DNA from: an uncultured Candidatus Saccharibacteria bacterium
GTDB lineage: Bacteria; Patescibacteriota; Minisyncoccia; Phycocordibacterales; UBA6065
Length of the DNA: 64,000 nucleotides
NCBI GenBank assembly: GCA_964495425.1
Contig: CAZBVG010000004.1
Coordinates: forward strand, 63,633-127,632
Direction: 5' to 3'
Shown: positions 3,925-35,204 of the stretch, in pieces
Layout: each line of letters starts with the position of its first letter
Numbering within the stretch: the first letter of the stretch is position 1
Notes under the pieces: model-generated
The model's database searches: none
What the model was told of the DNA's origin: nothing
Seen by the model: only the letters and a program-made list of their open reading frames with translations
Translations under genes and position numbers: made by a program

Positions 3925-4154
3925 GTTCCTAGTATATCTTTATATTTATTCTATTAAGAAGACTATTACTTCTAATAGCAGTGTGAATATGTGAATAACT
4001 TTTTATATGGCTTTGTATAAGGATATTCCATATATTTTTTCTAAAGATTCTGTGGATAATCACAGATCTATTTTGAACAACATATTCACAAAGTGAACTT
4101 ATACCCCTTTTTATCCACACTTCCCCACGTCTTGTCCCCAACAAACTAACACAC
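3925..4154. promoter_or_regulatory. Candidate oriC in the AT-rich dnaA-dnaN spacer
   Basis: Perfect DnaA boxes TGTGGATAA at 4051-4059 and TTATCCACA at 4111-4119. The 230 bp spacer is AT-rich. Confidence 0.5.
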
Positions 4155-6928: not shown

Positions 6929-6947
6929 TAACAACATTGATATGTTA

Positions 6948-6972
6948 AAAGCGGCCATATGGCCGCTTTTAA
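6948..6972. terminator. Bidirectional terminator after yidC, between convergent genes
   Basis: Hairpin aaaagcggccatatggccgctttt. Confidence 0.6.
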
Positions 6973-6977: not shown

Positions 6978-8219
6978 TTATTCTGTAAGTTCGTATCGCC
7001 ACACCGTCTGATCTTTTTTATTTTTAAATACGAGGACCGTTTCACTTTGATTGAGGTTGAGGTTGGTTATGTCCATGGAGCGACTGACTTCGAAAAGCGG
7101 GTTAAAGATCTCATTTGTTTCTCCTGTAGAAACATCAATTTTCCAAAGTGTATCACTAAATGAAACTTTACCTTTATACCAATCATCAGGAAAAGTACCG
7201 CTTGCAAGTGTTGTTGGACTTGCGCAATAAATAATATTTTTGTTTTTAACACTCCATACACATTTGTCAGCAAGAGCCACTATTCCAGTGTTTTCAGTGG
7301 TGAAAGTTTTAGTATTGTATATTGCTGATTTTATTGAGTTTCCGGAAGTGTATGAGAGAAACACGAAGGTTCCATCTATATTAGCAAGAGCAGATAGGCC
7401 ATTAAGGTCGTTACCTGCCTTTGTGTAAGTACCGTTTGTTGTGTTGAGAAGGTATGCTGCGCTCATTACCGAACCAGCCGGCCGAGGATAAATAGTGATA
7501 AGTGTCGGAGAAGACCATCGTGAAGTCCAGTCGCTAAACGAAGAAGAAAATACTGAAGTTTTTTCAGAGCCATCCATGTTTGCTGTTATACCACTAGAAC
7601 CAGCTGATGTTTTTAAGGTGTAGTAAATTTTTGTACCCAACGAAGTAATGTTTTGTATATTGTCCTGAAGAAAAGTTCCCTCAAGGGCTTCTTCGGGTGC
7701 ATTTAACGCTGAAATTGTTGCATAAAAGGTTTTTATAGTTTCTTCCTCCCCTTTTAGATATCGCAAGATAACTTTTGATCCATCATTTGACCACAGAGAT
7801 TCATATACTTTCGGTATAGTTACGCTGGAAATTTTTTTGATCTGAGCCGAGACATTGTTTGTTTCATAAATATGACCAGTTGCTCTTTCAATATAACGGA
7901 TCAGGGTACTACTGCCCATGTCGAAAACTATCGCTCCCGCCGCTGGAGTTTTTGATATTTGGCGAAGGCGTGGAAGACCTGTTGCACTATTGATTTCACC
8001 CACTTCTGCTGTAGATGATGATATGTCAACAAGTATACCTGTACCTGTTTGAGAATCAGAGCTTGAGTTTTGTCCAAAAGGAAAAAGATCAGTTGGTGAT
8101 GTAATTGGGGTCTCTGTTTGTGGGGTTATATCCCCTGTTCGTAAGAAGAAGTACCAACCAAAAAATCCAGAAACAATAAGTAGGAATGCTAGTACTAAGA
8201 AAAAAGTTTTTTTAGACAT
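6978..8219 (-). CDS. Membrane-anchored secreted protein, beta-rich; last gene of the T4SS-like operon
   Basis: The likely start is the internal Met (MSKKTFFLVLAFLLIV), 4 nt after the upstream stop. The listed ORF runs to 8300. It has an N-terminal TM and then a Ser/Thr/Gly-rich beta-type sequence, with no recognisable family. Confidence 0.5.
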   Translation of the reverse strand: MSKKTFFLVLAFLLIVSGFFGWYFFLRTGDITPQTETPITSPTDLFPFGQNSSSDSQTGTGILVDISSSTAEVGEINSATGLPRLRQISKTPAAGAIVFDMGSSTLIRYIERATGHIYETNNVSAQIKKISSVTIPKVYESLWSNDGSKVILRYLKGEEETIKTFYATISALNAPEEALEGTFLQDNIQNITSLGTKIYYTLKTSAGSSGITANMDGSEKTSVFSSSFSDWTSRWSSPTLITIYPRPAGSVMSAAYLLNTTNGTYTKAGNDLNGLSALANIDGTFVFLSYTSGNSIKSAIYNTKTFTTENTGIVALADKCVWSVKNKNIIYCASPTTLASGTFPDDWYKGKVSFSDTLWKIDVSTGETNEIFNPLFEVSRSMDITNLNLNQSETVLVFKNKKDQTVWRYELTE

Positions 8220-8223
8220 AGAT

Positions 8224-9333
8224 TTAATTTGATGGGAAGGTGAATACAGGTCGAACTGGTTTAGCCACAGTTTCAGTAGTAATTGGTGTATAGGTACCAC
8301 TCATGGTTGTTTTTGTCCCATTTCTCCAAGCCAGCATTTTCTCTAAATAAGTCATCTGTTGAGCAAGTTGATTTTCGATAGTTATGATTTCTTCATTAGA
8401 AAATACATTAGAACCAGAGTTGGTTTTTTGATCCCTCATACTTGATATAAGCTTTGCTGAGTCAACAGCAAGCTTATTTATATTTGCTCTGATTTGATCA
8501 GTACTGAATGTGTCGGCGTTTGTAGCATAAACGTTGGATAGTTCTGCTGCACTTGTGTACGAGTACAATTTTATTTGTGCATATTCAGCATTTGCTTTTG
8601 CCTGGATTGCAGCGTCTCTTTTATCTTGAAGCTCGTTAATTACGTCATCGGTTGCCCCTGCTGCGATTGCTGCATCAAGAGCCTTTTGTGCAGCTGTAGC
8701 AGTGTCGTTAAGTGAGTTCAATTCTCTATTTTTGACAGATATTTTATTACGGAGATCTTCTATTGCGACCTTAAGGGGATCAGATGAAAGGAGTTGGCAC
8801 GGCACCTTTTTTCCGTCTTTATCAAGAACACTGCATTCGACAGGTGTACCTAAACTCAAATCCACGTTAACAAGCTGAACGTTGATTGTTTGGAGAATAA
8901 GGAAAGCTGATAGAAGTAGAAGTAAACCCCAAAGAGCGCCATGCCAATGTTCTTTGGCAGCAGATTTGCCGGTTATGGCTTCGGTGGTCGCGTATTGAAT
9001 ACCTGCCCATATGATCATACCTATCGCAAGTATTGCAGCTATGCCGATCGCAACACCATAAACATTAGAGAGAACTTTTACAGGATTAGCTTTAACACAG
9101 CTGCTGGTATCACCATGGATATCTGGGACACAGCCGGTTGTTAAACCGGGTATTGTTGTAAGTGGGACATAGGTGCATCCAACAGGTACATAACCTCTTG
9201 CATCGGGCGCACAAGGGTCTACAGTAGCCGCCAAGGCGCTATTGGTACCAATGAAAAGAGAGGTGACTATGAATAGTATTGTGTAAATACTCAGTATTTG
9301 TTTAAGGATCGTTTTGTTGGATGATCTAATCAT
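8224..9333 (-). CDS. Putative T4SS pilin-like protein (TrbC/VirB2-like topology) with a long C-terminal coiled-coil extension
   Basis: Signal peptide, a Cys-containing segment, then two hydrophobic helices separated by a short loop (VAIGIAAILAIGMIIWAGIQY ... ALWGLLLLLSAFLIL), as in VirB2/TrbC pilins. Topology-based call only. Confidence 0.35.
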   Translation of the reverse strand: MIRSSNKTILKQILSIYTILFIVTSLFIGTNSALAATVDPCAPDARGYVPVGCTYVPLTTIPGLTTGCVPDIHGDTSSCVKANPVKVLSNVYGVAIGIAAILAIGMIIWAGIQYATTEAITGKSAAKEHWHGALWGLLLLLSAFLILQTINVQLVNVDLSLGTPVECSVLDKDGKKVPCQLLSSDPLKVAIEDLRNKISVKNRELNSLNDTATAAQKALDAAIAAGATDDVINELQDKRDAAIQAKANAEYAQIKLYSYTSAAELSNVYATNADTFSTDQIRANINKLAVDSAKLISSMRDQKTNSGSNVFSNEEIITIENQLAQQMTYLEKMLAWRNGTKTTMSGTYTPITTETVAKPVRPVFTFPSN

Positions 9334-10301
9334 TGAAATATTGTTACGCTCGCTTGCCCTCCTTGCAATATTCTTTCATTGTGCTGAACATTAAGCTCAA
9401 TCACTGCTTGACCCCCCTCTGCCCCACGTATCGTGATTTCGTTTTTATTTGAAAAGTTTGTATTCCTTACCCCATTTACGAGCCAGTCAAGCGAAATCGA
9501 CGGTGAATTTATCTTTGAAATTGAGAAATCAAAAGGCACTGCTCGAAGAGTGAGTTCCTCTTGGTTTAAATTGATATTATTTGGAATCACGTGCTCGTAA
9601 ATAACACCAATGAGAGGATTGTTTTCATAGAATAAAATTTCTGGTGTGCTGGGAGTTATAGTTATTGCTTTTGATCCGCTCATATCGTCATTTTGATTTG
9701 AAACCACAACAGAGATTTCATCTTCGCCGCGTACGTAGCTCTCTTGCATTCCAGAATAGGAATCTTTTCCGTAACCAGACTGATCTTGAACAGCGCTCCC
9801 GTTTTTCTTCCAAATATAAATTAGTGTTTTCGGGTCGAGTCTTTTCCCTGTTGAATTATAAAATTCAGGTATTGCAGTCACTTTAAATTTTGTACCGTAA
9901 GCTTCAAGAGCTCTTCCTTTATAAAAAGGTGGTGTATATCCGTCTGATTCCCAGAGTAAGGTTATGTCTACAGGGTTAAATGACGTTTGCCTTGTGATTG
10001 TTCCAAAGGAACCAGAAATAGTTGCTGAGACACGCGTAATCAAACCCGCTTTACCTGTAGGAACCTCAATTGAGGTTATGCCCTTCCCCTTTTTAAAAAC
10101 CTTACCATTGACGGTCCATGTTATGGTTGCAGAGTCAATATCGGTACCGATTGCAGAAATTTTAACAACGACAGTTGCATTGGGTCGTGGTGATTGCGGG
10201 TTAAGTTGCAAGACGACATCAGTATTCTGCGCATACGCGGTCAAAAAAACGAAACTCGATAGAAAGAGAACAAAAAAAGTACGTTGTAACAAGCGAAACA
10301 T
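9330..10301 (-). CDS. Secreted protein (signal peptide), operon member
   Basis: N-terminal signal peptide MFRLLQRTFFVLFLSSFVFLTAYAQ. A 4-nt ATGA overlap with the downstream gene indicates coupling. Confidence 0.5.
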   Translation of the reverse strand: MFRLLQRTFFVLFLSSFVFLTAYAQNTDVVLQLNPQSPRPNATVVVKISAIGTDIDSATITWTVNGKVFKKGKGITSIEVPTGKAGLITRVSATISGSFGTITRQTSFNPVDITLLWESDGYTPPFYKGRALEAYGTKFKVTAIPEFYNSTGKRLDPKTLIYIWKKNGSAVQDQSGYGKDSYSGMQESYVRGEDEISVVVSNQNDDMSGSKAITITPSTPEILFYENNPLIGVIYEHVIPNNINLNQEELTLRAVPFDFSISKINSPSISLDWLVNGVRNTNFSNKNEITIRGAEGGQAVIELNVQHNERILQGGQASVTIFQ

Positions 10302-10361
10302 ACGGTTATTCTAGCATAAAAAATGCCCTGAAATCGCAAAGCGCCTGTTAATAAACATCGT

Positions 10362-12167
10362 TTAGAGTTGTTGGTTCTTTTTTGCCTCTTTTATAGCCAA
10401 TATTTGCGATGGATCTGAGGTGATAATCTGGTCTTCAGTGTAGGAAGCGATGATTTTAATAGCCACATGCTTCAATCCTACGAAGAAGATACCCTCACCC
10501 ACGTCTGATTCCAACAAGAGATACTTTTCCTCATCGGTAAGGTTAAAGACTTGTTGTAGCCTATCGATCGATGATGGGGACTGTTTTAGAAGGATTTGTA
10601 TAGAAGAGTTGGTAATAATCGGTGTTCCATAAGGAGATTTGAGGAAGTCGTCCACGTCCTGGGTAATAGTTGCCACTCCAAGGAAGTATTTTCGGCCTCG
10701 TTTTGCCAAACCAAGAAGGAATGAGGCGGTATCCTCGGATTTCATCATCCACCATGCCTCGTCGATCACAAGGAGACGCTTTTTGAGGTTTTTACGGATA
10801 GCGTTCCAGATATAGTGGGTCACAATATACATTGCCACTGGTTTAAGCTCTTCTTCCATGTCTCGAAGAGAGAAGACGATGAATTTCGCGCCGATATCTA
10901 CGTTTGTTGGCTGATTTATGAAGCCAGACCAGGTTCCTTTGGTGTACTTGGTAAGTCTTTGAACAAGTGACTCCCCTCCTTCCATACCCGCAAGTACCAA
11001 TTCAAAGTCCGAAAGAAGTGGTGGTTGAATGTTTTTGAAGTCAGAATCAGGTGTGATGTCTTTGAGAGCGTAAGTTTCAGTAATTGCCTTGTCGATAAGC
11101 GCATCTTCTTCAGGTGTGAGACCCCCCATCATGATTCTAAAGAGACCTACAAGGTTAATGATGTTTGATCGAAGCACATCTGCGCCAGATTCGTCCTCGC
11201 GCGGTACCGGAAGATCAAATGGGTTGATGTGATGCTCAGAGTTAAGTGAGATATTGAAGTATTTTCCACCAGTTGCCTCTGCAAGGAACTCATATTCCCT
11301 CTCTGGGTCGATAACAATCACATCTGTATCGAACATGAGTGTTCGAAGGATTTCGAGTTTCGTTGTGTATGACTTACCAGCACCAGACTTTGCAAAGGTA
11401 ATTGAATTGTAGTTTTCAAGGGAGAATCGATCGAAAAGTACAAGAGATGAATTGTGTCGGTTAATACCGTACAAAATTCCCTTATCCGACGTGAGGTCGA
11501 ATGAAATAAATGGGAATAGTGAAGAAAGTGGTGATGAGTTGAGCTTTGAATGCACCAAAAGTTCATCGGTTGCAGTTGGTAAGTTTGATTTATAGCCTTG
11601 TTCCTGTTGGAAAAGTGCCGGTTTTACATATACGAGCTTTGATTCAAGGATTGATTTGATTTCAGACTCAGTTTTGTCGAGTTCTGCCTCTGAATCGCCA
11701 TAAATAGAGATATATACACCCACATCAAAGAGTTTTTCTTGCGCCTGCTGGAGCTGATCTCGGAGGTTTTCAAGGTCTTGATATGCCGTATCAAGCATTG
11801 GATCGCGTACAAGCCCCTTCTGTTCCCTGATGGCAATCTGGCTTTGCACCTCAGCAACCTTTTTCTGGAATTGGCGAAGCACTTTGGCGGTTTCAACAGG
11901 GTGAACAAAGATAGAAATATTGAAAACCTTGTCGAGGTTAATGATTGGGGCAAACCAGCTTTCACCAAGGAAGCGTGGATATGAAATAACAAAGAAGCTG
12001 CGAACGATTTTGTCACCAAGATTGAGTTCTCGAGGAGAAACCTTCAAGGCCGATGGCGCAATGACATCCTTCAATTCCAAAACTCCCGCTTCGTATATTT
12101 CCTGTGGAAGAATTGGGGCGATTCTTGTACTGTCGTCTTTCTTTTTAAGAAAATCAAAGATTCCCAT
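10362..12167 (-). CDS. VirB4/TrbE/CagE-family T4SS ATPase, C-terminal ATPase part
   Basis: Walker A AKSGAGKSYTTK, Walker B LLVIDEAWWMM (DEAW is typical of VirB4/TraC), and a downstream ITQDVDDF motif. Confidence 0.8.
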   Translation of the reverse strand: MGIFDFLKKKDDSTRIAPILPQEIYEAGVLELKDVIAPSALKVSPRELNLGDKIVRSFFVISYPRFLGESWFAPIINLDKVFNISIFVHPVETAKVLRQFQKKVAEVQSQIAIREQKGLVRDPMLDTAYQDLENLRDQLQQAQEKLFDVGVYISIYGDSEAELDKTESEIKSILESKLVYVKPALFQQEQGYKSNLPTATDELLVHSKLNSSPLSSLFPFISFDLTSDKGILYGINRHNSSLVLFDRFSLENYNSITFAKSGAGKSYTTKLEILRTLMFDTDVIVIDPEREYEFLAEATGGKYFNISLNSEHHINPFDLPVPREDESGADVLRSNIINLVGLFRIMMGGLTPEEDALIDKAITETYALKDITPDSDFKNIQPPLLSDFELVLAGMEGGESLVQRLTKYTKGTWSGFINQPTNVDIGAKFIVFSLRDMEEELKPVAMYIVTHYIWNAIRKNLKKRLLVIDEAWWMMKSEDTASFLLGLAKRGRKYFLGVATITQDVDDFLKSPYGTPIITNSSIQILLKQSPSSIDRLQQVFNLTDEEKYLLLESDVGEGIFFVGLKHVAIKIIASYTEDQIITSDPSQILAIKEAKKNQQL

Positions 12168-12171
12168 ATGA

Positions 12172-12807
12172 TTATTTTAGTGCAATCGGCTTTTCGGTGT
12201 CCCCAGGATTGAATATCTTATAAAAAAGTTCGACGATTTCCTCGGTCCCAAGCTCTACTGTTCGGATACCGCATCGCACCAAACCTTGCGTGACCACACT
12301 CATTCTTTGTTCCAATTGACTGCGACGCTCTTCAAAATCTGCGGCTTTTTTTTCAGCACTCTCAGCAGCGTCTTTTTTCTTTCCCAAAAGATCAGCCACT
12401 CCCCCTTTATTGAGAAGTGCTGGTGAATATGGCACCACAACGAAGAATGTTTTCGTCATGATGTTTGAATTTTCTGTGAAATTCTTGATGAATTGAATAT
12501 ATTCCCGTGTCTGAATTTTCAAAAGATCGCTCATTTGCTCTTTGAGTCGGTTTTCAAGCAAAGCGATATAGGGGCGGATATCAAGCCGACGTGACTGAAT
12601 AAAGATCTGTACTGAAAAGTCGAGTGAATTGAGAAAATTTTGGAACTGAAGAAGGATGGATTGCTGTTCGTCAGCTGATTTAAGAGCAAAGTTAAGAGAT
12701 GAGGCCATAATAATGCCACGTAGCGAATCATCCTTGAGGATTACGATCCCTTGCTTTATTTCCTTGATTGGAACGAACTCTTGAGTGGTTTTAGCGTTTA
12801 CTGCCAT
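12172..12807 (-). CDS. VirB4 N-terminal domain fragment (split gene or frameshift)
   Basis: The 211 aa ORF ends 4 nt before the ATPase ORF and lies in a different frame. Together the two ORFs total ~812 aa, a typical VirB4 length. The N-terminal pattern (..VPIKEIKQGIVILKDDSLRGIIMASSLNFAL.S..EQ) resembles the VirB4 N-domain. Confidence 0.5.
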   Translation of the reverse strand: MAVNAKTTQEFVPIKEIKQGIVILKDDSLRGIIMASSLNFALKSADEQQSILLQFQNFLNSLDFSVQIFIQSRRLDIRPYIALLENRLKEQMSDLLKIQTREYIQFIKNFTENSNIMTKTFFVVVPYSPALLNKGGVADLLGKKKDAAESAEKKAADFEERRSQLEQRMSVVTQGLVRCGIRTVELGTEEIVELFYKIFNPGDTEKPIALK

Positions 12808-12844
12808 GCAAATAAATTATGGGTACAGTATATCGTACTTTTTT

Positions 12845-13285
12845 CTAGAACGTTTTCTTCCCCTGCTCATTCTGTGCCGGGGTCTGGCTTTGTTTGATAT
12901 CAAGTGACCAGGTGAGATCTTTAAGCTTGCTGTCAGAGAGCTTTGGGACATAAAAGCTTGATGTTGGGTCATTTTCCTCACCCGGCTTTGGAGTTATTGG
13001 TTTTTCCACCTTCTTCCAAAGGTATAGTTTGCTCTTTGTATAGTAGTTAAATGCCGATTCTATGACATTTATGAAGGGCTTGTTGTTTACTTTGTAGAAT
13101 GAAAGGACAAAGGTGAAAGCAATTACTGGTAAGATAAAAATGAGGCTTATAAAGAGGTTTTTTATAATTGCGTAGAATATAAATGATATTCCCGCTCCAC
13201 TCAAAAGATAGATGAACTGCTTGATAGTAAGTGGTCCAAAAATTTTATCTTCTACTTCAATGAATTGAGGAACTTGAAATCTCAT
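12845..13285 (-). CDS. PrgI/VirB3-like small membrane protein
   Basis: 146 aa. The N-terminal motif FQVPQFIEVEDKIFGPLTIKQFIYL is followed by two TM helices, which is the architecture of PrgI-family (VirB3-like) proteins of Gram-positive-type T4SS. It sits adjacent to VirB4. Confidence 0.5.
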   Translation of the reverse strand: MRFQVPQFIEVEDKIFGPLTIKQFIYLLSGAGISFIFYAIIKNLFISLIFILPVIAFTFVLSFYKVNNKPFINVIESAFNYYTKSKLYLWKKVEKPITPKPGEENDPTSSFYVPKLSDSKLKDLTWSLDIKQSQTPAQNEQGKKTF

Positions 13286-13335
13286 AGGTTAAGTATAACT
13301 CAAAACAAAATCCACCTAAATAGGGTGGATTTTGT

Positions 13336-14052
13336 TTAGAGCGCGGGCTCTCGGTACGGGTCGCTTGAAGATTTTTGCGGAGGTTTTTGTTCCTGGGGAT
13401 TTTCTATCAAATTTGTTCTTTGCGCCGGAAGATTTGTGGGTTGAGCTAGTTTACTTGTAAGGAAATCCTGAGCAATTCGGTTCTTTGTGACTTCCCAAGG
13501 CTTATCTGGACCACGCTTCAACCTATCTAGATCGGGCTGTGGGACAGGCAGGATAGGTTTTACTGGTTCTGGATTTTCGATTTCAGTAAGAACTTTGCGT
13601 GGGGTCGGCATTATAACTGCTCTATTTTGTGTTGGGGTCGGTGTTGGTTGAGTTGCGGGCGTCGGTCGTGCGGGAATGTAGTTCGATGGGGGTTTAGGCG
13701 CAACAGGCACAGACTTTGGTGTTATTGGATTGCTTTCGGTATTACCTTTAATCACAAGAGCTCTATAAGCAACAAATATTTTTTCATTCACCTCTTTCAT
13801 AATAGATTCAAGGGTGTTTGGATCAAGCGAGAGTTCAACCGCAAGCGAGGATTTAACGTCAGAAGTTTTTATGAGGCCAATCAAAGTCGCAAACAGGATA
13901 TCTCCAAGCGCTCCGATTTTATCTATATGAAGATTATACTTCTTCCCTATTGTGTTATAGCTATCAGTAAAGGTATCAGAAGCAAGATAATCCTTCTGTT
14001 CATCTGATAATCGTTTATATGCCTCAAGTTTTTGTTCTTTTGGGATGTTCAT
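13336..14052 (-). CDS. Pro-rich hypothetical protein (operon member)
   Basis: 238 aa with a PT-rich linker (PTPATQPTPTPTQ) and no known domain. Confidence 0.45.
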   Translation of the reverse strand: MNIPKEQKLEAYKRLSDEQKDYLASDTFTDSYNTIGKKYNLHIDKIGALGDILFATLIGLIKTSDVKSSLAVELSLDPNTLESIMKEVNEKIFVAYRALVIKGNTESNPITPKSVPVAPKPPSNYIPARPTPATQPTPTPTQNRAVIMPTPRKVLTEIENPEPVKPILPVPQPDLDRLKRGPDKPWEVTKNRIAQDFLTSKLAQPTNLPAQRTNLIENPQEQKPPQKSSSDPYREPAL

Positions 14053-14054
14053 AT

Positions 14055-16475
14055 TTAGAAGCTCTCACCTACTGGATTATCGGTGAACCATTTATTAACC
14101 TTTTTCACGTTAGCGTCAGCATTAGGTGTAAGTGCACCATAAACTCCCCTGGCCGCATCGGCAAAACGCTTTTTAATTGCTGCTCGTTGGGTGCTATCTA
14201 ACTCGTCTATTGCCTTAGAGAGAGTCTTAGGTGTCATACGAATCGAAACTTCAAAATTGTCTAACCTGTCTTTCCACCCCAATTTCGCAATTTCATTTTC
14301 TTCTAACTTATCAAGTTCCATTTCAATGGTTGGTCCGTTAGTGCGTAGTATTGCAGCATCAAGATCCTGGTATCGAGTCTTCTTCATATCTGCCTTTATG
14401 ACGCCAGGAAGCTTCTTATTCTTCATGAGCTTATCGAACTTGTCATAATCCATGATCTTAGGATTGATGAAGTCATATGATCGAAGGTCGCCTGGAGAAA
14501 GATTCTGAAGTTCCTCGTCAGAGTGATTCCTAATAGCCTTTTTGATCTCATCAGTATTCTTGCTTTTGAGCGCAAGATTAACATCAGAGAGACGTGTTGC
14601 CCAGATTTTTTGTTTACCCGCATCGCTTTCCTGCTTATCAGCAAGATGGTCGACCTGACTCTGAGAGATGGTCTGAAGAAAGACTTCGTTCCCCAGGATT
14701 TTTTTATCAAGTTTCTCAAGTTCTTTGTTACCGAGTTTCTGAGCTTGGTCTGCAATTCTAAGCTTTGCCGCCTGAACTTTAGCATCACCATTAAAGCTTT
14801 GAAGTGCTGATGAATAATCTGCTTGTGCAGAAGCCAGCGCTGCAGCTGTTCCTGTTCCGTTTTTAAGTGCTGTAGATGCATTGTCCATAGCAAGCTTTTT
14901 CGTAATAAGATCTAAATCCTCAGCAGCTTTTTTGAGGTCGCCTTCGATGTCCTTAAGAATATTTTCATCTGCTTCGGCAATTTTGCGTTCTTCCGCCCAC
15001 GCCGCAGTCTGTGCCCCAAGCTCCTTTTTATCCCAGGCTTTTGCATCAATCTTAGCGTCGGTTGTGCTACTAAGTGAACCGCTTAAGAGTGAGCCAACAT
15101 TGGTCTTGTCGGTACCAATATTTCGTATATCAAGAGTACCCGATTTAAGTGTTTTTTGTGCGGCATCCATTGCTTTGCGTGGATCCTTTATGTATTTACC
15201 AATTTTTGATGTGGTTAGAATTGGAGGTAGGTTCTCGATAGCCGCCTTTTTAAATGCTGCACCCTTCGCCCCATTCTGCGCAGCTGCGGCCGCAAGACCT
15301 CCTCGCGCTAGAACTCGAGTTCCCATTGCAACACCACCTATTCCAAGCGTCGTTACTGCTGTTACAGCGAGTTTGCCTAAGCTGTCTGCAATTCCGCCAA
15401 GAGTCTTACCCATTTCCCCGCTATTTTCTTTTGCAATTTTAAGTACAGTACGAAGGAGGAAGATGACTAAGAAATATTGGAAAAATTGAGCTACTGTGAA
15501 ATTACTGATAAGTGCAATAGAGTTGGTCTTTGCATCAAAAAGTTTTCCACCCAAGTTTCCTAGGCTATTTATAAATTGAAGTGCTATGTAAAGCATCAAG
15601 AGAGTCGCAAGAGGAAAAACCGCTGCTGATAACAGCTCCTCTTTCCAATCTCCAGCATGCTTTTTTAACTGAGGCAATACGCCACCCATAAATCCCAGGG
15701 GCGAAAATACCAATAGAAAAAGTATCGTTATGCTTCTCGAAATAAAAAGAATCGCACAATATAAGAAGATGTAGGATGTCGTGCATACAATTATGAGTCG
15801 CAACATGACACCAATGAAACCCTTTGTGCCATCAGTTACCTGTTCCACATAATCTTGTGCATTAGCTGCGTTAGCATTCGTGGTTGCAGACCAAAATCCT
15901 ATAATACCGAGTCGTGTTGCAATGAGTCCGCTAAGACTTACAGGGCTTGATCGGTCGCTACTGTTGCTTACAAGGGTGTTTTGAACACCTTGATAGAGCC
16001 AGTTACCAAAAATGTTACTTACATCAACAACAGCTTTTGTGATGAAGAGGCTGAAGTTAATAAGAATTGCGGCAATGATCACGTTCTTAAGCATGTTCAT
16101 TGTGCCAAAACGCGTGCCATTAATGATTGTTCCTAGGCTAATCCATATGAGGATAAATATAAAGAATATATTTGCTATGTCGCGAATAATCACCCACCCA
16201 AGATTAATTGCCGGTGAAAGGCTAAATATATATGCGGTATTGATACTGAACTGGATCGCAATATCCATTATCAATCCACATAAATACATTATGCCCGCCG
16301 CAAGGGGGAGTATATAAAGCTCAAAAGGGAGCATGATGAGCCTTTGTATGGTGCCAAGGGCAATACCATCAAGGCTAAACCATCCAGCGTGGGCATGGTG
16401 AGGGATTATAAAAAGCGCAACAACAAGACTGAGGATAGAAGTGATTGCGGCAGGTTTTGTAAAGAAACGCTTCAT
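14055..16475 (-). CDS. Large polytopic membrane protein, VirB6/TrbL-like candidate with a C-terminal coiled-coil domain
   Basis: 806 aa. The N-terminal ~430 aa carry a signal peptide and many TM helices. The C-terminal ~370 aa are Ala/Lys/Asp-rich predicted coiled coil. Size and position match the VirB6-like proteins of minimal T4SS. Inference. Confidence 0.45.
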   Translation of the reverse strand: MKRFFTKPAAITSILSLVVALFIIPHHAHAGWFSLDGIALGTIQRLIMLPFELYILPLAAGIMYLCGLIMDIAIQFSINTAYIFSLSPAINLGWVIIRDIANIFFIFILIWISLGTIINGTRFGTMNMLKNVIIAAILINFSLFITKAVVDVSNIFGNWLYQGVQNTLVSNSSDRSSPVSLSGLIATRLGIIGFWSATTNANAANAQDYVEQVTDGTKGFIGVMLRLIIVCTTSYIFLYCAILFISRSITILFLLVFSPLGFMGGVLPQLKKHAGDWKEELLSAAVFPLATLLMLYIALQFINSLGNLGGKLFDAKTNSIALISNFTVAQFFQYFLVIFLLRTVLKIAKENSGEMGKTLGGIADSLGKLAVTAVTTLGIGGVAMGTRVLARGGLAAAAAQNGAKGAAFKKAAIENLPPILTTSKIGKYIKDPRKAMDAAQKTLKSGTLDIRNIGTDKTNVGSLLSGSLSSTTDAKIDAKAWDKKELGAQTAAWAEERKIAEADENILKDIEGDLKKAAEDLDLITKKLAMDNASTALKNGTGTAAALASAQADYSSALQSFNGDAKVQAAKLRIADQAQKLGNKELEKLDKKILGNEVFLQTISQSQVDHLADKQESDAGKQKIWATRLSDVNLALKSKNTDEIKKAIRNHSDEELQNLSPGDLRSYDFINPKIMDYDKFDKLMKNKKLPGVIKADMKKTRYQDLDAAILRTNGPTIEMELDKLEENEIAKLGWKDRLDNFEVSIRMTPKTLSKAIDELDSTQRAAIKKRFADAARGVYGALTPNADANVKKVNKWFTDNPVGESF

Positions 16476-16479
16476 ATAT

Positions 16480-18054
16480 TTATTGGACGGTTATGTAGTG
16501 ATCTTTAAGTCCAAGCGTGTTTCCTTGAACGTCATACACAACAGTTTGGAATGCGTAATTTCCAGGAACCCCTCCAGGCTTCTTGGTCGCGGTAATTCTC
16601 ACGGTAAAAGGTTTACCACTGTCCGTCCAAATATCACTCCACCCTACTGTCGCTTGTGGGTTTGAGGTAATCGGGAATGTGCTCGAGGTTCCATCGGCTC
16701 GGACGAATTCAATATTTATATTAGAAAATGCTACAGAGAATGGAACATCTGCCATAGTACTTGCATTCTTGAATGCTGTTCGCATGAGAAGGCCATCGGT
16801 TCGATAATTAGTTGCCAATTCCGCTTCGTAGAAAAGGGTGCTTGCAGCACTAACAAATGTTGAGTTGCCTGGATTAAGTGTTAGATCGAGCGTCTGTGTC
16901 CCGGTAGGCCCACCTACTGTTGGTGAATTACCCGACGGTCCGCCAGCGCCACCAGCCTCTACAGGAGGTGGGTTACTGAGGGCTGAATTAAAGTCGCTAG
17001 CACCAGTAGCAAGACCGGTTTTCAAGGCGCCACCAAGTGTTCCCTCGTCTCCTGTTATTACGGTAGGCTGGGCCGAGGCGTTGTAATCAGATGGTTGAAC
17101 GACAGTTTTTCGTTTTCCTCGGTTACCACCAAGAAGTCCAAATGAATTGTTCATGATTTGCTTTACAAGTTGATTTGTCAGCGCATCGTAAACAGCATTG
17201 ATGTCATTTGCGAGACCTATCTGTTGAAGATCAACATTTAGAGTTGCACTTAAACGATCTTGAATAATAATTCCTGGAGTTTCGATAGTACATGTTTCTT
17301 TTCCGGTAGCATCTTTTTCACAGAATTTCCAATTTTTGAAACCGTTACCCCAATCAAGATACTTTTCCTCTATAGCCTGGGCATCAATGATTCTTCGTGA
17401 TAACTCATCCTGCGCAATCATATATGCGCCGTAGGCATTATTTTTTGGGACGGTTGTGACTTGTAACCAGTTGTCCCATCCCCCACTATTATCTCCAGCA
17501 ACAAATCCTGTCACATTATCTATAACCTTGGTTAGCGTACACGAGGCCCGTTTGTTGTAGGGTAATCGGCTTTGTGCCAAAGCTATTCTGAGTTTGAAAG
17601 AAAATTGTGAGCACAAAAAGGGCGCTTCTTTTGCTATGAAGTCACCTATAACCTGATCCGCGGTGTCTTTGAGTAGCCCTTCAAAATTCACCTCAAATCC
17701 TGGATTTCCTTGGAAACCGTTGTTTATCCAGGCAACCGTATCCATTGTCATTTTATTAAGAAGAGCCTTTGCCATTTTTACGACAAGAGGTTTGAAAATA
17801 CAGTCAGAAACAAAGCTTCCGGCAGAGCTTAATTTTGTGGTCGAGTCGTTTGAGGTAGCGACGCGAGTCATTTCATCGGTTGCAGCGCTAAAACCAAGCG
17901 CGGCAGCAACTTGTGAAAGACATGACGCCTGCGCTGCAGACTTTTTAGGGTATAAAAAGAAACCGCTCGGTATTAGAAGAGTGAGGATGAGGACAGAAAG
18001 GACTGTTTTTTTGCAAAAACGAGAAATCATGTATCTCGAAAAGATAGAGGTCAA
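16480..18054 (-). CDS. Secreted protein with a Gly/Pro-rich region (operon member)
   Basis: 524 aa with an N-terminal TM/signal and a PPVEAGGAGGPSGNSPTVGGPTGT segment. No family recognised. Confidence 0.5.
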   Translation of the reverse strand: MTSIFSRYMISRFCKKTVLSVLILTLLIPSGFFLYPKKSAAQASCLSQVAAALGFSAATDEMTRVATSNDSTTKLSSAGSFVSDCIFKPLVVKMAKALLNKMTMDTVAWINNGFQGNPGFEVNFEGLLKDTADQVIGDFIAKEAPFLCSQFSFKLRIALAQSRLPYNKRASCTLTKVIDNVTGFVAGDNSGGWDNWLQVTTVPKNNAYGAYMIAQDELSRRIIDAQAIEEKYLDWGNGFKNWKFCEKDATGKETCTIETPGIIIQDRLSATLNVDLQQIGLANDINAVYDALTNQLVKQIMNNSFGLLGGNRGKRKTVVQPSDYNASAQPTVITGDEGTLGGALKTGLATGASDFNSALSNPPPVEAGGAGGPSGNSPTVGGPTGTQTLDLTLNPGNSTFVSAASTLFYEAELATNYRTDGLLMRTAFKNASTMADVPFSVAFSNINIEFVRADGTSSTFPITSNPQATVGWSDIWTDSGKPFTVRITATKKPGGVPGNYAFQTVVYDVQGNTLGLKDHYITVQ

Positions 18055-18066
18055 GATAATTATACA

Positions 18067-18975
18067 CTACTTTAGAAAGAGGTATCCACTTTCAAATGAG
18101 GAAAACTCCACGTTTCTATTTTTAAGGTGGCTTGATATCACTCGGAGCGCTGGATCTATAGATTTTATACCGTCTTCATAACTTAACATGAGTCGAGCTG
18201 CTCCGATTGGGTCTGAGTCTATGTATGTCATGCCCTTAATGCCCTCAATTATCGCAGAAAGTGAGTTGAGAAATGCGAGGTGGGCATCGACAAGGTTCTT
18301 TGGGACAGCTATTTGAGACGCGATTTTACGTGCCTCGGTATAGCGAGCGATATTTTGAGGTAATTTTTCGAGATATGAAGCATCGTCTGTCTCATACACA
18401 TGATTTACAATAGCGATTTCACTTTCGTATCCAACTGGGGCAGGTCTACTTATTGCTGAGGCCATCTCATTGGCATATTTTTTCAATTCTGACGGTAAAT
18501 CAGTATCTAAGACAATAATATCTGTAATTGTATAGATTTTTTCTCCCTCAGGGCCACCATAATCCTTAGTTAGAAGCTCGTTCACGAAGCGAATGGTGGT
18601 GTTTTCGTCTATTACCCCACCCTTATTCTTGAAATCTACATATTTTTCAAGAAGTTCTCTTGAAAAGCGGTCTGTTGCAGTAATCGGGGCCGTTTCAGCA
18701 TCACTTTTTTCATAAGCATCCTTTAATTCTGCGATTTTGTCGTCAGTGGTAGATGTACTACTCACAGCTAAAAGGGCCTCTTCCCAACCAGACGTGTCAA
18801 TTTGGCCATTTTGCAAGGCCTTTTTAATGCTTTCTTGTGCGATAAGGTCGATTTTCGCTCTAACTGAATTACTAGACTTCTCGGTTGCCTTTTTGAGATA
18901 AATTCCTCCCCCAATAATTACAACAGCTGCTATAAGTGAAAGGCCGATACTTGAAAAGAGAAATTTTCGAATCAT
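18067..18975 (-). CDS. Membrane-anchored protein, first gene of the T4SS-like operon
   Basis: 302 aa with an N-terminal TM (IGLSLIAAVVIIGGGIYL). Confidence 0.5.
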   Translation of the reverse strand: MIRKFLFSSIGLSLIAAVVIIGGGIYLKKATEKSSNSVRAKIDLIAQESIKKALQNGQIDTSGWEEALLAVSSTSTTDDKIAELKDAYEKSDAETAPITATDRFSRELLEKYVDFKNKGGVIDENTTIRFVNELLTKDYGGPEGEKIYTITDIIVLDTDLPSELKKYANEMASAISRPAPVGYESEIAIVNHVYETDDASYLEKLPQNIARYTEARKIASQIAVPKNLVDAHLAFLNSLSAIIEGIKGMTYIDSDPIGAARLMLSYEDGIKSIDPALRVISSHLKNRNVEFSSFESGYLFLK

Positions 18976-19035
18976 ATGAAAAGTATATCAGGCTCTTACT
19001 ACGCTTCATAGAGAGAATGGTGCTATAATTTACAG

Positions 19036-19818
19036 GTGAGAAACACTTTTCAATACATTGCAACAGTTGTTTTAGTGGGGCTTTTCAGTTCTACGGTGCC
19101 CTTTTCAACCGCGAATGCGCAAAATATTACCGCCACCTCGTTTTCAAACACTCAGTCAGAGGTACGTCAGACTATTCCAACCCTCACGAACCCACTTTTG
19201 AATAAAAAGACTGTAAATTCAAGCGTTTCATCGACTCCCACTACAAATCTCTTACGGAGATCACCTGGAACAACTGCAAATCAGGTAAATTTGTCTGGTT
19301 TTATCAATAAGGTGAGAAGAAATGGTAAAAATCTTCCTGAAATTGAATCAATAATCAATCAGATCAAGATTGATACCGCAACAACAACGGACCTCATGGG
19401 TTTATTTTTAAAACAGGATGGAATTATTCCTATAACTTCGAGTTTTCGAGTAAGTGAGAGTAATCCCCTTAAAGAAAAGTTGCTTTCATTTGCGCAATTC
19501 TTTAAGCCACGAGAGGTACAAGCTGTTGGCACATCAAATTTCGGCGGCCCGCTCCTCTATTCATTCTTCTGTTCGTGTAGCTATACATTCCTTGTTTGGA
19601 TTGGACCTACAGCAAGCGCGGGTACCTCAAATCTGATTCTTGATTACGTACCATATTCACAAATGTACATGCAGTACAACATGCCATATACATCAAAAGC
19701 CATCGGAAAATATACTCCGAGTTCTTCTATGTGTTACATCTACTATGGTTACGGCTGTGTAAACGTACCAGTGAGCGAGGGCCTCATCTCATCTCAAGTT
19801 GGTTCGTCGGCTTACTAG
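19036..19818 (+). CDS. Secreted protein (signal peptide), divergent from the T4SS-like operon
   Basis: Signal peptide with an ANA cleavage site, then a Ser/Thr-rich sequence. The apparent GTG start follows a TGcTATAAT extended -10 at 19022-19030. Confidence 0.45.
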   Translation: MRNTFQYIATVVLVGLFSSTVPFSTANAQNITATSFSNTQSEVRQTIPTLTNPLLNKKTVNSSVSSTPTTNLLRRSPGTTANQVNLSGFINKVRRNGKNLPEIESIINQIKIDTATTTDLMGLFLKQDGIIPITSSFRVSESNPLKEKLLSFAQFFKPREVQAVGTSNFGGPLLYSFFCSCSYTFLVWIGPTASAGTSNLILDYVPYSQMYMQYNMPYTSKAIGKYTPSSSMCYIYYGYGCVNVPVSEGLISSQVGSSAY

Positions 19819-22760: not shown

Positions 22761-23909
22761 ATGACTGTATGTCCGAAATATGGCTCAACAGAGCCATATA
22801 TTCAGAAAATGAAGCAAATACTGGATAAAATAAGCACTATTTTTAGATTTCTCAAAGAACTTTCGCCAAAATCGGTCCGTAGTATAAAGGCGAAATCACA
22901 TACGACCCTTACTATCGCGCTTTACTTAGTAAAGCATGTTTTCTTTTATACGGCTCTACTTATACCTCTTTCGGCTTCCGCGGGGGTATTTTCATTTCTA
23001 ACTGACCTTATGGGCAAAGAGGTGGATGCTAATATCCGACAAAGCTCACAGTATCTGGGTGTACTTCAGGCGCAGGTTGGTCCGGGCTCTACGTCATCTG
23101 TTGGTGGAGGTGAAATACAGATGGTTGATGGAGGTGCTCTCATTCAGGAAGCGGGTGTTATTGGTACTCAGGCGGATATTACAGAGCCAAAGTCTACCCA
23201 GATCAGTATTTACGTTGTTCGTAAGGGTGATTCCCTTTCTCAGATAGCTCAAATGTATGATGTGACGGTAAATACCATTAAGTGGTCTAACAACATTACA
23301 GGTCCAATTCAGGAGGGTGATGAACTTGTTATATTGCCAATCTCAGGTGTAAGCCATACGGTAAAAAAGGGTGACACCGTTCGTTCAATTGCGACAAAGT
23401 ATAAAGCGAGCCTCGATGAAATTCTTGCGTATAACAATGTTAAAGCGACAGACAAGCTAGAAGTTGGATCTGTGCTTATTGTTCCTGATGGTGAGGTGCA
23501 GGCTACGCCTATCGCGACATCTAACTCAACCTCAAAGGTGCGCAGTGTGGGCGGTCCGGTGTACAAGGATTTTTATATTCGACCTATCGAAGGAGGTGTG
23601 CGTACTCAAGGTCTCCATGGTTTGAACGGTGTTGACCTTGCTGCGCCTGTTGGCACCCCTATTCGTGCTTCTGCGGGCGGTACGGTTATTATTGCTCGAT
23701 CGTCTGGTTACAACGGTGGATATGGATCATATGTTGTGATCTCGCACGCAAATGGAACACAAACGTTGTACGCGCATATGAGTCGCGTTGTGGTTGTTCA
23801 GGGCACAACTGTCAGCCAGGGAGATATGCTCGGAAATGTTGGAAGCACGGGTAAATCTACTGGTCCCCATATTCATTTTGAAGTTCGAGGTGCTGCAAAT
23901 CCGTTCTAA
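22761..23909 (+). CDS. LysM-domain M23 family metallopeptidase
   Basis: Two LysM repeats (YVVRKGDSLSQIA.., HTVKKGDTVRSIA..) and an M23 catalytic region HGLNGVDLAAP...GPHIHFEV. Confidence 0.85.
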   Translation: MTVCPKYGSTEPYIQKMKQILDKISTIFRFLKELSPKSVRSIKAKSHTTLTIALYLVKHVFFYTALLIPLSASAGVFSFLTDLMGKEVDANIRQSSQYLGVLQAQVGPGSTSSVGGGEIQMVDGGALIQEAGVIGTQADITEPKSTQISIYVVRKGDSLSQIAQMYDVTVNTIKWSNNITGPIQEGDELVILPISGVSHTVKKGDTVRSIATKYKASLDEILAYNNVKATDKLEVGSVLIVPDGEVQATPIATSNSTSKVRSVGGPVYKDFYIRPIEGGVRTQGLHGLNGVDLAAPVGTPIRASAGGTVIIARSSGYNGGYGSYVVISHANGTQTLYAHMSRVVVVQGTTVSQGDMLGNVGSTGKSTGPHIHFEVRGAANPF

Positions 23910-33922: not shown

Positions 33923-33997
33923 TGGTGCTTCCGGAGGGATTCGAACCCCCAACAACGGTTCCGAAGACCGGTATGATATCCATTTCACCACGGAAGC
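33923..33997 (-). tRNA. tRNA-Arg (anticodon TCG), CCA encoded
   Basis: Hand-folded: acceptor GCTTCCG/CGGAAGC, anticodon stem ccggt/accgt, loop cttcgga, T-arm ggggg-ttcgaat-ccctc, 3' ACCA. Confidence 0.85.
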
Positions 33998-34407: not shown

Positions 34408-34439
34408 CATATGCAAAAGGCGCCAAGGGGCGCTTTTTG

Positions 34440-35147: not shown

Positions 35148-35204
35148 TTGCTGAGTAATTAGATTTTTCCGCTTAGTGTGCTAGTATGTGAAAGTTCTAA
35201 ATAT

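Follow-up and report, generated by a model that had tools for sequence, protein, structure and literature searches.

Ten co-directional ORFs were located on the minus strand between positions 6978 and 18975 of the window (the whole 64-kb stretch of DNA that was analysed) and are numbered g10 to g1 from the first gene of the operon to the last (Table 1). The same ten genes are called on the source contig. No gap exceeds 60 nt: the nine junctions comprise three 4-nt gaps, one 2-nt gap, one 4-nt ATGA overlap and four gaps of 12-60 nt. The first-pass annotation had counted eleven co-directional genes spaced by 4-nt gaps or ATGA overlaps; its eleventh ORF is the divergent plus-strand gene, and while the tight packing was borne out, the four wider junctions and the one of 2 nt depart from that spacing. 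A palindromic hairpin, ranked first in a terminator scan (12 pairs, six of them G-C), sits between the stop codons of yidC (6928) and g1 (6978) and is predicted to be a strong bidirectional intrinsic terminator common to the convergent yidC gene and the operon. Promoter-like sites numbered 27 against 32 expected in shuffled sequence; because such sites are not enriched, the sigma-70-like site upstream of g10 is a candidate only, on weak evidence. From the spacing and the terminator we infer that the ten genes form a single transcription unit. In G+C (0.39-0.44) the cluster does not differ from its flanks.

Table 1. Features of the locus, with positions in the window
Feature	Position	Strand	Description
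g1	6978-8219	-	last operon gene; predicted anchored 7-bladed beta-propeller
g2	8224-9333	-	predicted VirB2-type pilin domain and variable tail
g3	9330-10301	-	Sec-signal protein; three probable beta-rich repeats
g4	10362-12167	-	VirB4 ATPase body
g5	12172-12807	-	TrsD-like; VirB4 N-terminal domain as own ORF
g6	12845-13285	-	PrgI / VirB3-like small membrane protein
g7	13336-14052	-	family not recognised; C-terminal DPYRE peptide
g8	14055-16475	-	probable extended VirB6/TrbL-like polytopic membrane protein
g9	16480-18054	-	signal- or anchor-bearing protein
g10	18067-18975	-	first operon gene
divergent gene	19036-19818	+	outside ten-gene minus-strand unit
palindromic hairpin	6945-6972		12-bp stem, A/T runs on both sides; predicted intrinsic terminator
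candidate sigma-70-like promoter	19025-19053	-	TTGAAA-17-AATTAT, upstream of g10, 9/12 consensus positions

The operon was confirmed to be origin-proximal, as previously annotated. The rpmH-rnpA-yidC genes and dnaA-dnaN with a cluster of three DnaA boxes (3990-4119) lie 0-3 kb from it, and the cumulative GC-skew minimum falls at ∼4-6 kb of the window. An M23/LysM peptidase gene was found ∼3 kb outside the operon, a ComM-like gene ∼5 kb from the cluster (23912-25468) and a separate PilB-type pilus ATPase gene at 54327-56075.

The VirB4-family ATPase reported for this locus was recovered above a curated cutoff. g4 (601 aa) matched NF045971 (NCBIfam, CD1110 family) with 372 bits (cutoff 325) over profile positions 185-733 and PF19044 with 94.7 bits (6e-27), and its translation contains Walker A GAGKS and Walker B DEAW. 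The N-terminal part of the same 752-position model (positions 2-118) was matched by g5 (211 aa), which had been missed as a detached VirB4 N-domain. g5 also matched TrsD (NF041427, 6e-7), carries a PF26593 TraC-like record on the source contig and aligned by BLASTP to a clostridial VirB4 that is not split (797 aa), over residues 23-197 of the latter (E = 8e-10). The ATPase is thus predicted to consist of two polypeptides, TrsD-like g5 and g4, and the split was seen in every related locus with both ORFs. Across 80 species-level Paceibacteria genomes g4 identity was 79-96%; the nearest non-CPR VirB4s are from plasmids of Bacillota and Actinomycetota and are 27-36% identical.

The other core components were assigned with differing strength. 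g6 (146 aa) matched PF12666 PrgI with 43.5 bits (cutoff 27), in agreement with the earlier PrgI/VirB3-like call; it has a predicted hydrophobic hairpin at residues 23-67 and orthologues in 39/39 loci (median identity 54%). g8 (806 aa) spans positions 3-213 of the 215-position PF04610 TrbL profile with 21.1 bits, below the cutoff of 25.9, and 7 of 35 orthologues matched TrbL (best 6e-5), as does the Vogelbacteria orthologue in precomputed annotation. Several TM segments are predicted. Alignment across species is restricted to the multi-TM N-terminal half, which is conserved, whereas the ∼400-aa hydrophilic tail, rich in K, A, L and D, is not. The gene lies upstream of PrgI as in clostridial modules. 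The VirB6-like assignment made previously is therefore kept as a weak one, g8 being probably an extended VirB6. For g2 the earlier pilin-like call failed on the protein's own PF18895 score (21.7 bits, cutoff 26.6) but held in 37 of 38 orthologues (best 4.7e-10). g2 has a signal peptide and two predicted TM helices (84-116 and 129-157), and its pilin domain (∼85-157) is followed by a ∼210-aa C-terminal tail that differs between species. Alignment between species covers only about a third of g2, orthologues range from 281 to 499 aa, and in Vogelbacteria the equivalent gene encodes a plain pilin of 101 aa. We read g2, the only pilin gene in the window, as a putative VirB2-type T4SS pilin domain fused to a C-terminal tail. 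The cytoplasmic-membrane core thus comprises the VirB6-like channel protein g8, the VirB3/PrgI anchor g6 and the two-part VirB4 (g5 and g4).

The remaining five genes (g1, g3, g7, g9 and g10) appear to encode lineage-conserved proteins of no known family: searches of Pfam, NCBIfam and PDB sequences returned no match at an assignable level, and no description was found in the consulted papers on the Patescibacteria T4SS. g1 (413 aa) has an N-terminal TM anchor and a ∼55-aa disordered linker before its extracytoplasmic domain. An AF2 model from 71 sequences (mean pLDDT 88.9, pTM 0.79) contains 28 strands in seven blades of four, and g1 is accordingly modelled as a membrane-anchored extracytoplasmic 7-bladed beta-propeller. 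Foldseek against the PDB returned generic WD40/TolB/tricorn-type propellers (TM-scores ∼0.5), with no T4SS part among the matches. A PD40 repeat match was found in one relative, and orthologues are present in 39/39 loci. g3 (323 aa), encoded directly downstream of VirB4, has an N-terminal hydrophobic segment ending in an AYAQ-type sequence. Comparison of the three thirds of the orthologue alignment with one another by hhalign gave 90-96% probability, with E-values between 1e-6 and 1e-9; weak Ig-like Pfam matches were seen and there was no PDB sequence match. g3 is probably composed of three homologous, Ig-like, beta-rich repeats of ∼100 aa each, and its orthologues occur in 39/39 loci (median identity 32%).

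g7 (238 aa) has a conserved ∼100-aa N-terminal domain and a proline-rich linker; its C-terminal peptide D-P-Y-R-E(-P) is invariant. Each of 55 loci contains DPYRE once, and in 54 of them it lies ≤8 aa from the C-terminus of the g7-position ORF. There was no Pfam or PDB match, none of 858 homologues is named, and the gene position is unchanged in Kaiser- and Vogelbacteria clusters. g9 is 524 aa from the TTG at 18054, or 516 aa from the ATG at 18030 called on the source contig. It combines a conserved Cys-containing N-terminal domain (∼350 aa) with a C-terminal beta-sandwich. W101, G105, F106, G108, P110, C140, C164, N197, N198 and C237 are invariant in the alignment. A word index gave 25 homologues, and a profile search gave a large, unannotated family of 5,551 clusters at 50% identity. 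In relatives the C-terminus is replaced by F5/8-type-C (discoidin), PKD, surface-Ig or InlB-B-repeat modules; of these, the discoidin, PKD and Ig types are typical of adhesins. The C-terminal sandwich was modelled by AF2 at pLDDT ∼90, with only generic Ig/CBM/adhesin sandwiches returned by Foldseek. Since the conserved N-domain was modelled at pLDDT <50, it is from domain architecture alone that g9 is proposed as an adhesin or host-recognition component. g10 (302 aa) is bitopic, with a hydropathy TM helix at residues 1-28 and a ∼270-aa extracytoplasmic part. It has no Pfam, NCBIfam or PDB sequence match, and orthologues of 21-41% identity occupy the same position in most relatives. Position and topology make g10 a VirB8 candidate; none of the proteins of the cluster could be identified as VirB8-like or VirB1-like. 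The comparison with VirB5, VirB8, VirB9 and VirB10 folds that had been suggested gave no such fold in the two modelled proteins, g1 (well modelled) and g9 (confident only in the generic C-terminal sandwich).

The synteny suggested for checking was found. Gene order is identical in 39/39 full-length loci of other related Paceibacteria species, so the arrangement is not due to chance; the cluster lies between ksgA and yidC in all 39, and order and flanks are also kept in Kaiser- and Vogelbacteria. VirB4 is more conserved than DnaA in 39/39 loci (median identity 83% versus 61%), an indication that VirB4 is under strong purifying selection and so has a core role in the cell. Paceibacteria/Parcubacteria MAGs are the closest genomes, confirming CPR origin. 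The VirB4 score and the synteny in relatives both uphold the earlier assignment to the T4SS of CPR bacteria. The cluster is a real, vertically inherited chromosomal T4SS of an ultra-small Paceibacteria (CPR) bacterium, and it almost certainly belongs to the T4SS of the Patescibacteria clade.

Conjugation was considered as an alternative, the locus then being an ICE or integrated plasmid, or a decaying remnant of one, that moves DNA now or did so formerly. VirB4, PrgI and VirB6 have homologues among conjugation proteins, VirB4 is matched best by the NCBIfam model of a conjugal-transfer ATPase family, and a clostridial plasmid module is colinear with the core. Against this, no relaxase or VirD4 domain was detected in the scan, which covered most window ORFs of ≥120 aa (six at 58569-63582, near the right end, were left out), and no integrase adjoins the cluster. 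The fixed position between ksgA and yidC and the flank-like G+C also argue against a mobile element; intact ORFs and a VirB4 under more constraint than DnaA are the opposite of decay. In a published survey 99.3% of clade VirB4s had their nearest relative in the same class, hence vertical inheritance (PMC12102498). A conjugative element, or a remnant of one, is accordingly very improbable, and the earlier view that this is not a classical conjugative element agrees with the window scan, the survey and Southlakia Tn-seq (PMC10633639). A T4CP could be encoded elsewhere in the genome, the window being 64 kb; 5,713 VirD4 homologues were found in 2,918 Patescibacteria genomes, mostly far from virB4 (PMC12102498).

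Since neither coupling protein nor relaxase was detected among the scanned ORFs of the window, the machine is most likely used for contact with a host cell and for exchanging material with it, not for conjugation. Our reading, with a probability of about 0.75, is of a vertically inherited Patescibacteria T4SS that would derive from MPF-FATA-type conjugation systems, as found in single-membrane bacteria, with the DNA-processing parts lost, and that serves host contact. VirB4 is thought to extract and polymerise pilin in other T4SSs. Here a VirB4 hexamer would dock on VirB3/VirB6, pull pilin from the membrane and polymerise a pilus or tube. The extracytoplasmic g3, g1, g10 and g9 may bridge or arrange the wall zone and attach to the host surface, g9 carrying an exchangeable binding module, and g7 would dock onto a cytoplasmic partner via its C-terminal DPYRE. 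We know of no direct demonstration of pilus formation by a monoderm T4SS. That the system works as a pilus or host-contact machine is inferred; it rather probably builds a pilus-like surface structure for host interaction, and it is doubtful that host macromolecules are taken up through this structure. A cultivated relative has tubular structures that extend into its host and are possibly T4SS pili (bioRxiv 10.64898/2026.06.21.733656), and epibiotic growth of Southlakia requires the T4SS SEML1_0006-0019, which includes pilins and lacks T4CP and relaxase (PMC10633639).

A competence importer like Helicobacter ComB or archaeal Ced, feeding DNA or nucleotides to a cell unable to make them, would likewise lack a relaxase. 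The nearby ComM-like gene, and comF, recG and radA adjoining the T4SS in class ABY1 (PMC12102498), fit such a role. g4 matched the CedB model NF041017 weakly and in part (1.6e-8), but the score is 33.7 bits (cutoff 700) and the match is limited to the Walker B region; ComB- or CedA-like partners were not detected. Southlakia needs type IV pili and ComEC for competence; comEC deletion abolished transformation and left viability unaffected, whereas the T4SS is essential (PMC10633639; PMC12857230). The window also has its own PilB-type pilus ATPase. DNA uptake is improbable. Protein export is unlikely, if less remote. On that view the machine would be a T4CP-independent exporter comparable to Bordetella Ptl and Brucella VirB, passing Sec-exported effectors or toxins on to the host, and the pilin would form only a short channel instead of a pilus. 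Known T4CP-less T4SSs export proteins (PMC12102498; PMC12857230), export is one option proposed by Wang et al. (PMC10633639), and the Sec-type N-termini of g2, g3, g9 and possibly g1 could mark substrates, not machine parts. However, no operon gene was effector-like with a toxin or enzyme domain in Pfam/NCBIfam, and the secreted proteins have scaffold or adhesin folds. By sequence data alone, export is hard to tell from the preferred host-contact reading.

Among known systems, Helicobacter ComB and Sulfolobales Ced share a VirB4-family ATPase with membrane components and no relaxase but transport inward; no CedA- or ComB-specific partners accompany the partial CedB match here, and published Saccharibacteria genetics separate competence from the T4SS. 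Bordetella Ptl and Brucella VirB operate without a coupling protein, so a missing VirD4 alone does not mean a non-functional system; both belong to the diderm MPF-T type, whose VirB7/9/10 outer-membrane complex and VirB11 are all absent here. The monoderm MPF-FATA systems compared were CTn2/CD1110 (clostridial plasmid pCDC3875), pCF10 Prg and pGO1/pSK41 Trs. They share the single-membrane envelope logic without VirB7/9/10. The present VirB4 exceeds the CD1110-family cutoff, the core order VirB6-x-PrgI-x-VirB4 is colinear with the CTn2-type module, and a separate TrsD-like ORF precedes the ATPase as in the pGO1 subclass (PMC12102498). Unlike MPF-FATA systems, the cluster lacks VirD4, relaxase and SLT/CHAP hydrolase, is not on a mobile element, and its VirB4 is only 27-36% identical to plasmid VirB4s; it has a VirB2-type pilin, which Gram-positive systems lack (PMC12857230).

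The closest likeness is to the Patescibacteria T4SS. A survey of 2,407 assemblies described a monophyletic VirB4 clade nested in MPF-FATA, with TrsD, PrgI, VirB6 and VirB2-like pilins in the set and relaxases rare (PMC12102498, Quinonero-Coronel et al., 2025). The core is the same there and in Southlakia epibionticum (PMC10633639, Wang et al., 2023), likewise chromosomal, origin-proximal and without relaxase or T4CP in the cluster. The published systems differ in having an array of 2-11 short pilins, where the present locus has one pilin with a long variable tail, and a peptidase or lysozyme gene directly after virB4; for g1, g3, g7, g9 and g10 no description was found in the consulted papers. 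In Paceibacteria the T4SS adjoins dnaA, dnaN, rnpA and ksgA (PMC12102498), exactly as at the present locus. Since the cluster type, its origin position and the missing conjugation genes were published in 2023-2025, the locus is one more example, not a discovery; the new detail lies in the g1 propeller, the g3 triple repeat, the g9 family with swappable C-termini and the g7 DPYRE peptide.

Open reading frames called on the window gave ten co-directional ORFs on the minus strand (18975 to 6978), numbered here g1 to g10 with g10 transcribed first and g1 last. Gene calls on the public source contig (ENA metagenome, 180 kb) gave the identical ten genes. The first-pass annotation had described eleven co-directional genes with 4-nt gaps or ATGA overlaps; ten are on the minus strand, but the eleventh ORF is on the opposite strand. 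Four of the nine junctions are exactly of the spacing described (three 4-nt gaps and one 4-nt ATGA overlap), but the remainder are gaps of 2 nt (one) or 12-60 nt (four). The unit is closed by a terminator-like palindromic hairpin. Promoter sites in the window were not enriched over shuffles (27 found versus 32 expected), so a single candidate operon promoter is proposed and no further claim is made. With these minor corrections the observation was confirmed, and its interpretation as a T4SS is supported by the analyses below.

Coordinates and assignments of the T4SS-like cluster and other features of the window.
Feature	Position	Strand	Assignment
DnaA boxes	3990-4119		three, two perfect
dnaA	4155-5498		DnaA
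Hairpin	6945-6972		terminator-like, 12-bp stem; common to convergent yidC and T4SS unit
g1	6978-8219	minus	predicted TM anchor, disordered linker and 7-bladed beta-propeller (pLDDT 88.9)
g2	8224-9333	minus	pilin; PF18895 (T4SS_pilin) 21.7 bits, just below cutoff 26.6
g3	9330-10301	minus	secreted; three homologous repeats of about 100 aa (hhalign probability 90-96%)
g4	10362-12167	minus	VirB4; NCBIfam NF045971, 372 bits (cutoff 325)
g5	12172-12807	minus	TrsD-like, 211 aa; NF045971 positions 2-118
g6	12845-13285	minus	PrgI/VirB3; PF12666, 43.5 bits (cutoff 27)
g7	13336-14052	minus	conserved N-domain, proline-rich linker, invariant C-terminal DPYRE(P) peptide
g8	14055-16475	minus	probable VirB6; TrbL 21.1 bits (cutoff 25.9), sub-threshold, full profile covered
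g9	16480-18054	minus	conserved Cys-containing N-terminal domain, confidently predicted C-terminal beta-sandwich
g10	18067-18975	minus	bitopic, no family match
Divergent gene	19036-19818	plus	260-aa secreted protein, Cys- and Tyr-rich C-terminus
M23 peptidase	22761-23909	plus	two LysM domains; outside operon
ComM-like gene	23912-25468	minus	Mg-chelatase-family ATPase
Integrase-family gene	29376-30323		XerC/D-like in look
tRNA genes	33923-36134		Arg-TCG, Gly-GCC, Pro-TGG, Gly-TCC
ORF run	44437-49403	plus	four ORFs, three without Pfam match (413 aa, 145 aa, 796 aa)
Peptidase_S74 ORF	45969-46559	plus	'chaperone of endosialidase' domain; fourth ORF of the run
DsbA-like gene	53046-53765		thioredoxin
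PilB-type gene	54327-56075		T2SSE ATPase with MshEN domain

The VirB4 call for g4 held under profile searches, with a score above the curated threshold of NF045971 (VirB4-like conjugal transfer ATPase, CD1110 family), a match to PF19044 (P-loop_TraG; 94.7 bits, cutoff 25.8, 6e-27) and Walker A (GAGKS) and Walker B (DEAW) motifs in the translation. Only positions 185-733 of NF045971 were covered by g4. The adjacent g5 matched the TrsD model with E = 6e-7, under that model's 200-bit cutoff, and was aligned by BLASTP to residues 23-197 of an unsplit 797-aa clostridial VirB4 (E = 8e-10). On these alignments g5 is the VirB4 N-terminus absent from g4, carried as a separate upstream ORF, which is a feature of the Patescibacteria clade of T4SS. 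The split is kept in every related locus holding both ORFs. The best 80 genome matches of VirB4 were all Patescibacteria MAGs (79-96% identity), and the best plasmid VirB4s, from Bacillota and Actinomycetota, reached at most 36% identity to g4; these values are consistent with a place for this VirB4 in the monophyletic Patescibacteria clade nested in MPF-FATA. A CedB model scored 33.7 bits on g4 against a cutoff of 700, outside the range of CedB/ComB4 equivalogs, and domain searches detected no CedA- or ComB-specific partner families among the cluster proteins. The reading of the cluster as a competence machine was considered and ranked low; it is unlikely, and published genetics speak against it.

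The PrgI/VirB3-like protein recognised in the first pass was likewise recovered above the Pfam threshold, as g6, a small membrane partner separated from VirB4 by the TrsD ORF only. As for the VirB6-like assignment, g8 is polytopic, its topology and position fit VirB6 and its TrbL match is full-length, but the score falls below the cutoff and only 7/35 orthologues match TrbL at E <=0.01. An hhalign comparison of the g8 profile with one clostridial CD1112 VirB6 gave no signal, the single-sequence template making this a weak comparison with which homology is still compatible. g8 is probably an 'extended VirB6'. The two-helix pilin-like protein, g2, combines a signal peptide with two TM helices; its own score is sub-threshold, yet 37/38 of its positional orthologues match PF18895 (best 4.7e-10), which places a VirB2-like pilin gene near virB4 as in the Patescibacteria clade. 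The pilin domain is followed by a variable tail of about 210 aa; the Vogelbacteria counterpart is a plain 101-aa pilin.

The other five cluster proteins (g1, g3, g7, g9 and g10) had no sequence match to solved T4SS components among those searched, and profile searches with alignments of g9, g10, g3 and g7 against all PDB sequences returned chance-level matches only. For the g1 model, Foldseek matches numbered over 1,000, all of them generic propellers at TM-scores near 0.5 and none specific to a T4SS. g3 gave weak Ig-like matches. The g9 structure was predicted with AlphaFold2 using 25 homologues; pLDDT was below 50 in the conserved N-terminal domain, so the Foldseek result is meaningful for the C-terminal sandwich only. 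A profile search with g9 collected 5,551 clusters at 50% identity (2,986 at E <=1e-30). Relatives have the C-terminus swapped for discoidin/F5-8-C, PKD, surface-Ig or InlB-B-repeat modules, an adhesin-like architecture. One g9 relative matched DUF4141 weakly, at 16.9 bits (cutoff 30), and this was rejected as probably driven by the signal peptide. The DPYRE(P) peptide of g7 marks an ORF at the g7 position in 55 loci, including 27 without detectable overall homology; 858 g7 homologues were found, none of them named, and a literature search for the DPYRE motif matched only chemistry papers on pyrene. The topology and size of g10 suit VirB8, with no sequence signal against PDB chains. Its hhalign comparison with a clostridial cluster protein also gave no signal, again a weak test on a single-sequence template that is compatible with homology. 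No peptidoglycan hydrolase (VirB1-like) domain was found in the ten cluster genes. An M23/LysM peptidase gene and a ComM-like gene lie 3-5 kb beyond the operon; the former recurs near the cluster in several relatives and is a candidate stand-in for the missing VirB1 hydrolase.

The divergent gene beside g10 was rejected as a cluster member. Searches of the related loci detected a homologue in just 2 (tblastn) to 9 (phmmer) of them, so the gene does not belong to the conserved set but is variable and sits on the promoter side of the operon. Its homologues are often ORFs of about 120-130 aa.

The placement of the cluster beside the origin is correct, because it is flanked on one side by dnaN, dnaA, rpmH, rnpA and yidC (ksgA and uvrD lie on the other), DnaA boxes are present and the cumulative GC skew has its minimum at about 4-6 kb. 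A chromosomal, origin-proximal context without a relaxase is characteristic of the Patescibacteria clade. As first annotated, no relaxase (MOB family) and no VirD4/TcpA-type coupling protein was found among the scanned ORFs of the 64-kb window, and no flanking integrase; the only integrase-family gene lies about 10 kb away. A clostridial comparator differs in carrying a coupling protein two genes upstream of VirB6. The G+C content of the cluster equals that of its flanks, and neither mobile-element boundaries nor a variable insertion site were seen, the flanks being the same in 39/39 species. The reading of the locus as an ICE remnant was considered and also ranked low, as very unlikely. The operon reads towards the dnaA/oriC region and is therefore head-on to the replication fork leaving the origin rightwards, an orientation kept in 39/39 related loci. 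For an operon that is highly constrained and presumably well expressed this is unusual, and the gene-dosage argument put forward in PMC12102498 does not take it up.

Among the species-representative genomes scanned, at least 548 encode a relative, and the top 80 are MAGs of Paceibacteria/Parcubacteria that carry the labels Taylor-, Zambryski- or Campbellbacteria. All 39 loci with complete flanks share the gene order uvrD, ksgA, (g11), g10, g9, g8, (g7), g6, g5, g4, g3, g2, g1; yidC, rnpA; dnaA, dnaN, pbp, where g11 denotes the divergent gene. Clusters of Kaiser- and Vogelbacteria have the same gene plan. Median identities across the 39 loci were 83% for VirB4, 65% for TrsD, 61% for DnaA, 56% for UvrD, 54% for PrgI, 50% for DnaN, 49% for YidC and about 28-32% for g1, g3, g9 and g8. 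VirB4 identity was above that of DnaA in 39/39 loci; these were picked by VirB4 similarity, and a gap of 20 points within the same genomes is too large for a selection effect. This conservation together with the fixed order indicates vertical inheritance under strong constraint and is at odds with a mobile element.

Among the closest genomes, many (loci L002, L008, L009, L012-L014 and others) are labelled 'uncultured Candidatus Saccharibacteria'. With Taylor-/Zambryskibacteria (Paceibacteria) MAGs, however, they share 79-94% VirB4 identity and full synteny; the labels are probably wrong. In Kaiser-/Vogelbacteria a small four-helix-bundle gene (PF05635, 23S_rRNA_IVP / bAvd-like) stands between the g7 homologue and PrgI (L083, 845-1240; L084, 3099-3521); it is absent from the window cluster.

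Elsewhere in the window, the tRNA genes are spread over 2.2 kb, with stretches of several hundred bases between them that hold no ORF of >=120 aa. The Peptidase_S74 domain typically occurs in the tail fibres of phages and in surface fibres that cleave themselves. The DsbA-like and PilB-type genes (53046-56075) suggest a type IV pilus system distinct from the T4SS.

Which components are present, how they are organised and how strongly evolution constrains them are direct observations, and a mechanism may be proposed on them. Extraction and polymerisation of the pilin would be powered by a split VirB4 that docks on PrgI and VirB6; the part that spans the wall and binds the host would be organised by g3, g1, g10 and g9, with g7 docking through its C-terminal peptide. 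With neither coupling protein nor relaxase found in the window, the most likely role is host contact and material exchange, not conjugation. The system may otherwise be a T4CP-independent protein exporter. A more specific reading joins the five proteins without known family into a previously undescribed extracellular and adaptor module that in these single-membrane cells would replace VirB5/VirB7/VirB8/VirB9/VirB10. The module would convert what was once a conjugation machine to a tube that pierces the host and through which macromolecules of the host cytoplasm, such as RNA, are taken up; as a whole this reading is improbable (roughly 15%). Within it, g9 would be the adhesin-like part with exchangeable lectin, PKD or Ig modules. 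If the tube reading were true, the cell would depend on VirB4 for feeding, and this dependence would make VirB4 one of the genome's most constrained proteins.

In secretion biology, Patescibacteria T4SS are at present among the open problems that receive most discussion: they are essential for the growth of an epibiont, lack parts that handle DNA and may be the first single-membrane T4SS to make a pilus. The locus leaves this picture unchanged, and its increments are descriptive. They comprise a clean ten-gene parts list with boundaries, an architecture fixed across dozens of species, a VirB4 conserved above DnaA, the first assignments of a fold or architecture to four 'grey' genes, and two candidate experimental handles, the g7 DPYRE C-terminal peptide and the modular g9 family. 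The question of T4SS cargo is important, and the locus alone does not make it more testable.

In Southlakia, Tn-seq showed the T4SS (SEML1_0006-0019) to be essential for epibiotic growth; pilins are present and a recognisable coupling protein or relaxase is not (Wang et al. 2023, PMC10633639). A survey of 3,035 genomes (Quinonero-Coronel et al. 2025, PMC12102498) placed VirB4 in a monophyletic clade within MPF-FATA and found TrsD to be the commonest component, with PrgI, VirB6 and VirB2-like pilins near virB4; in this phylum VirB8 and VirB1 mostly escaped detection, relaxases were rare, and the T4SS of Paceibacteria lay close to dnaA, dnaN, rnpA, ksgA and rpmH. These systems were classed as a new branch of the T4SS superfamily in a 2025 review (PMC12857230), and a 2026 preprint (10.64898/2026.06.21.733656) reported tubular structures, possibly T4SS pili, and host-RNA uptake in a cultivated member. 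Given these reports, every element of the first-pass interpretation has already been published, and the locus adds another instance of a known system, confirming the picture for one more Paceibacteria genome.
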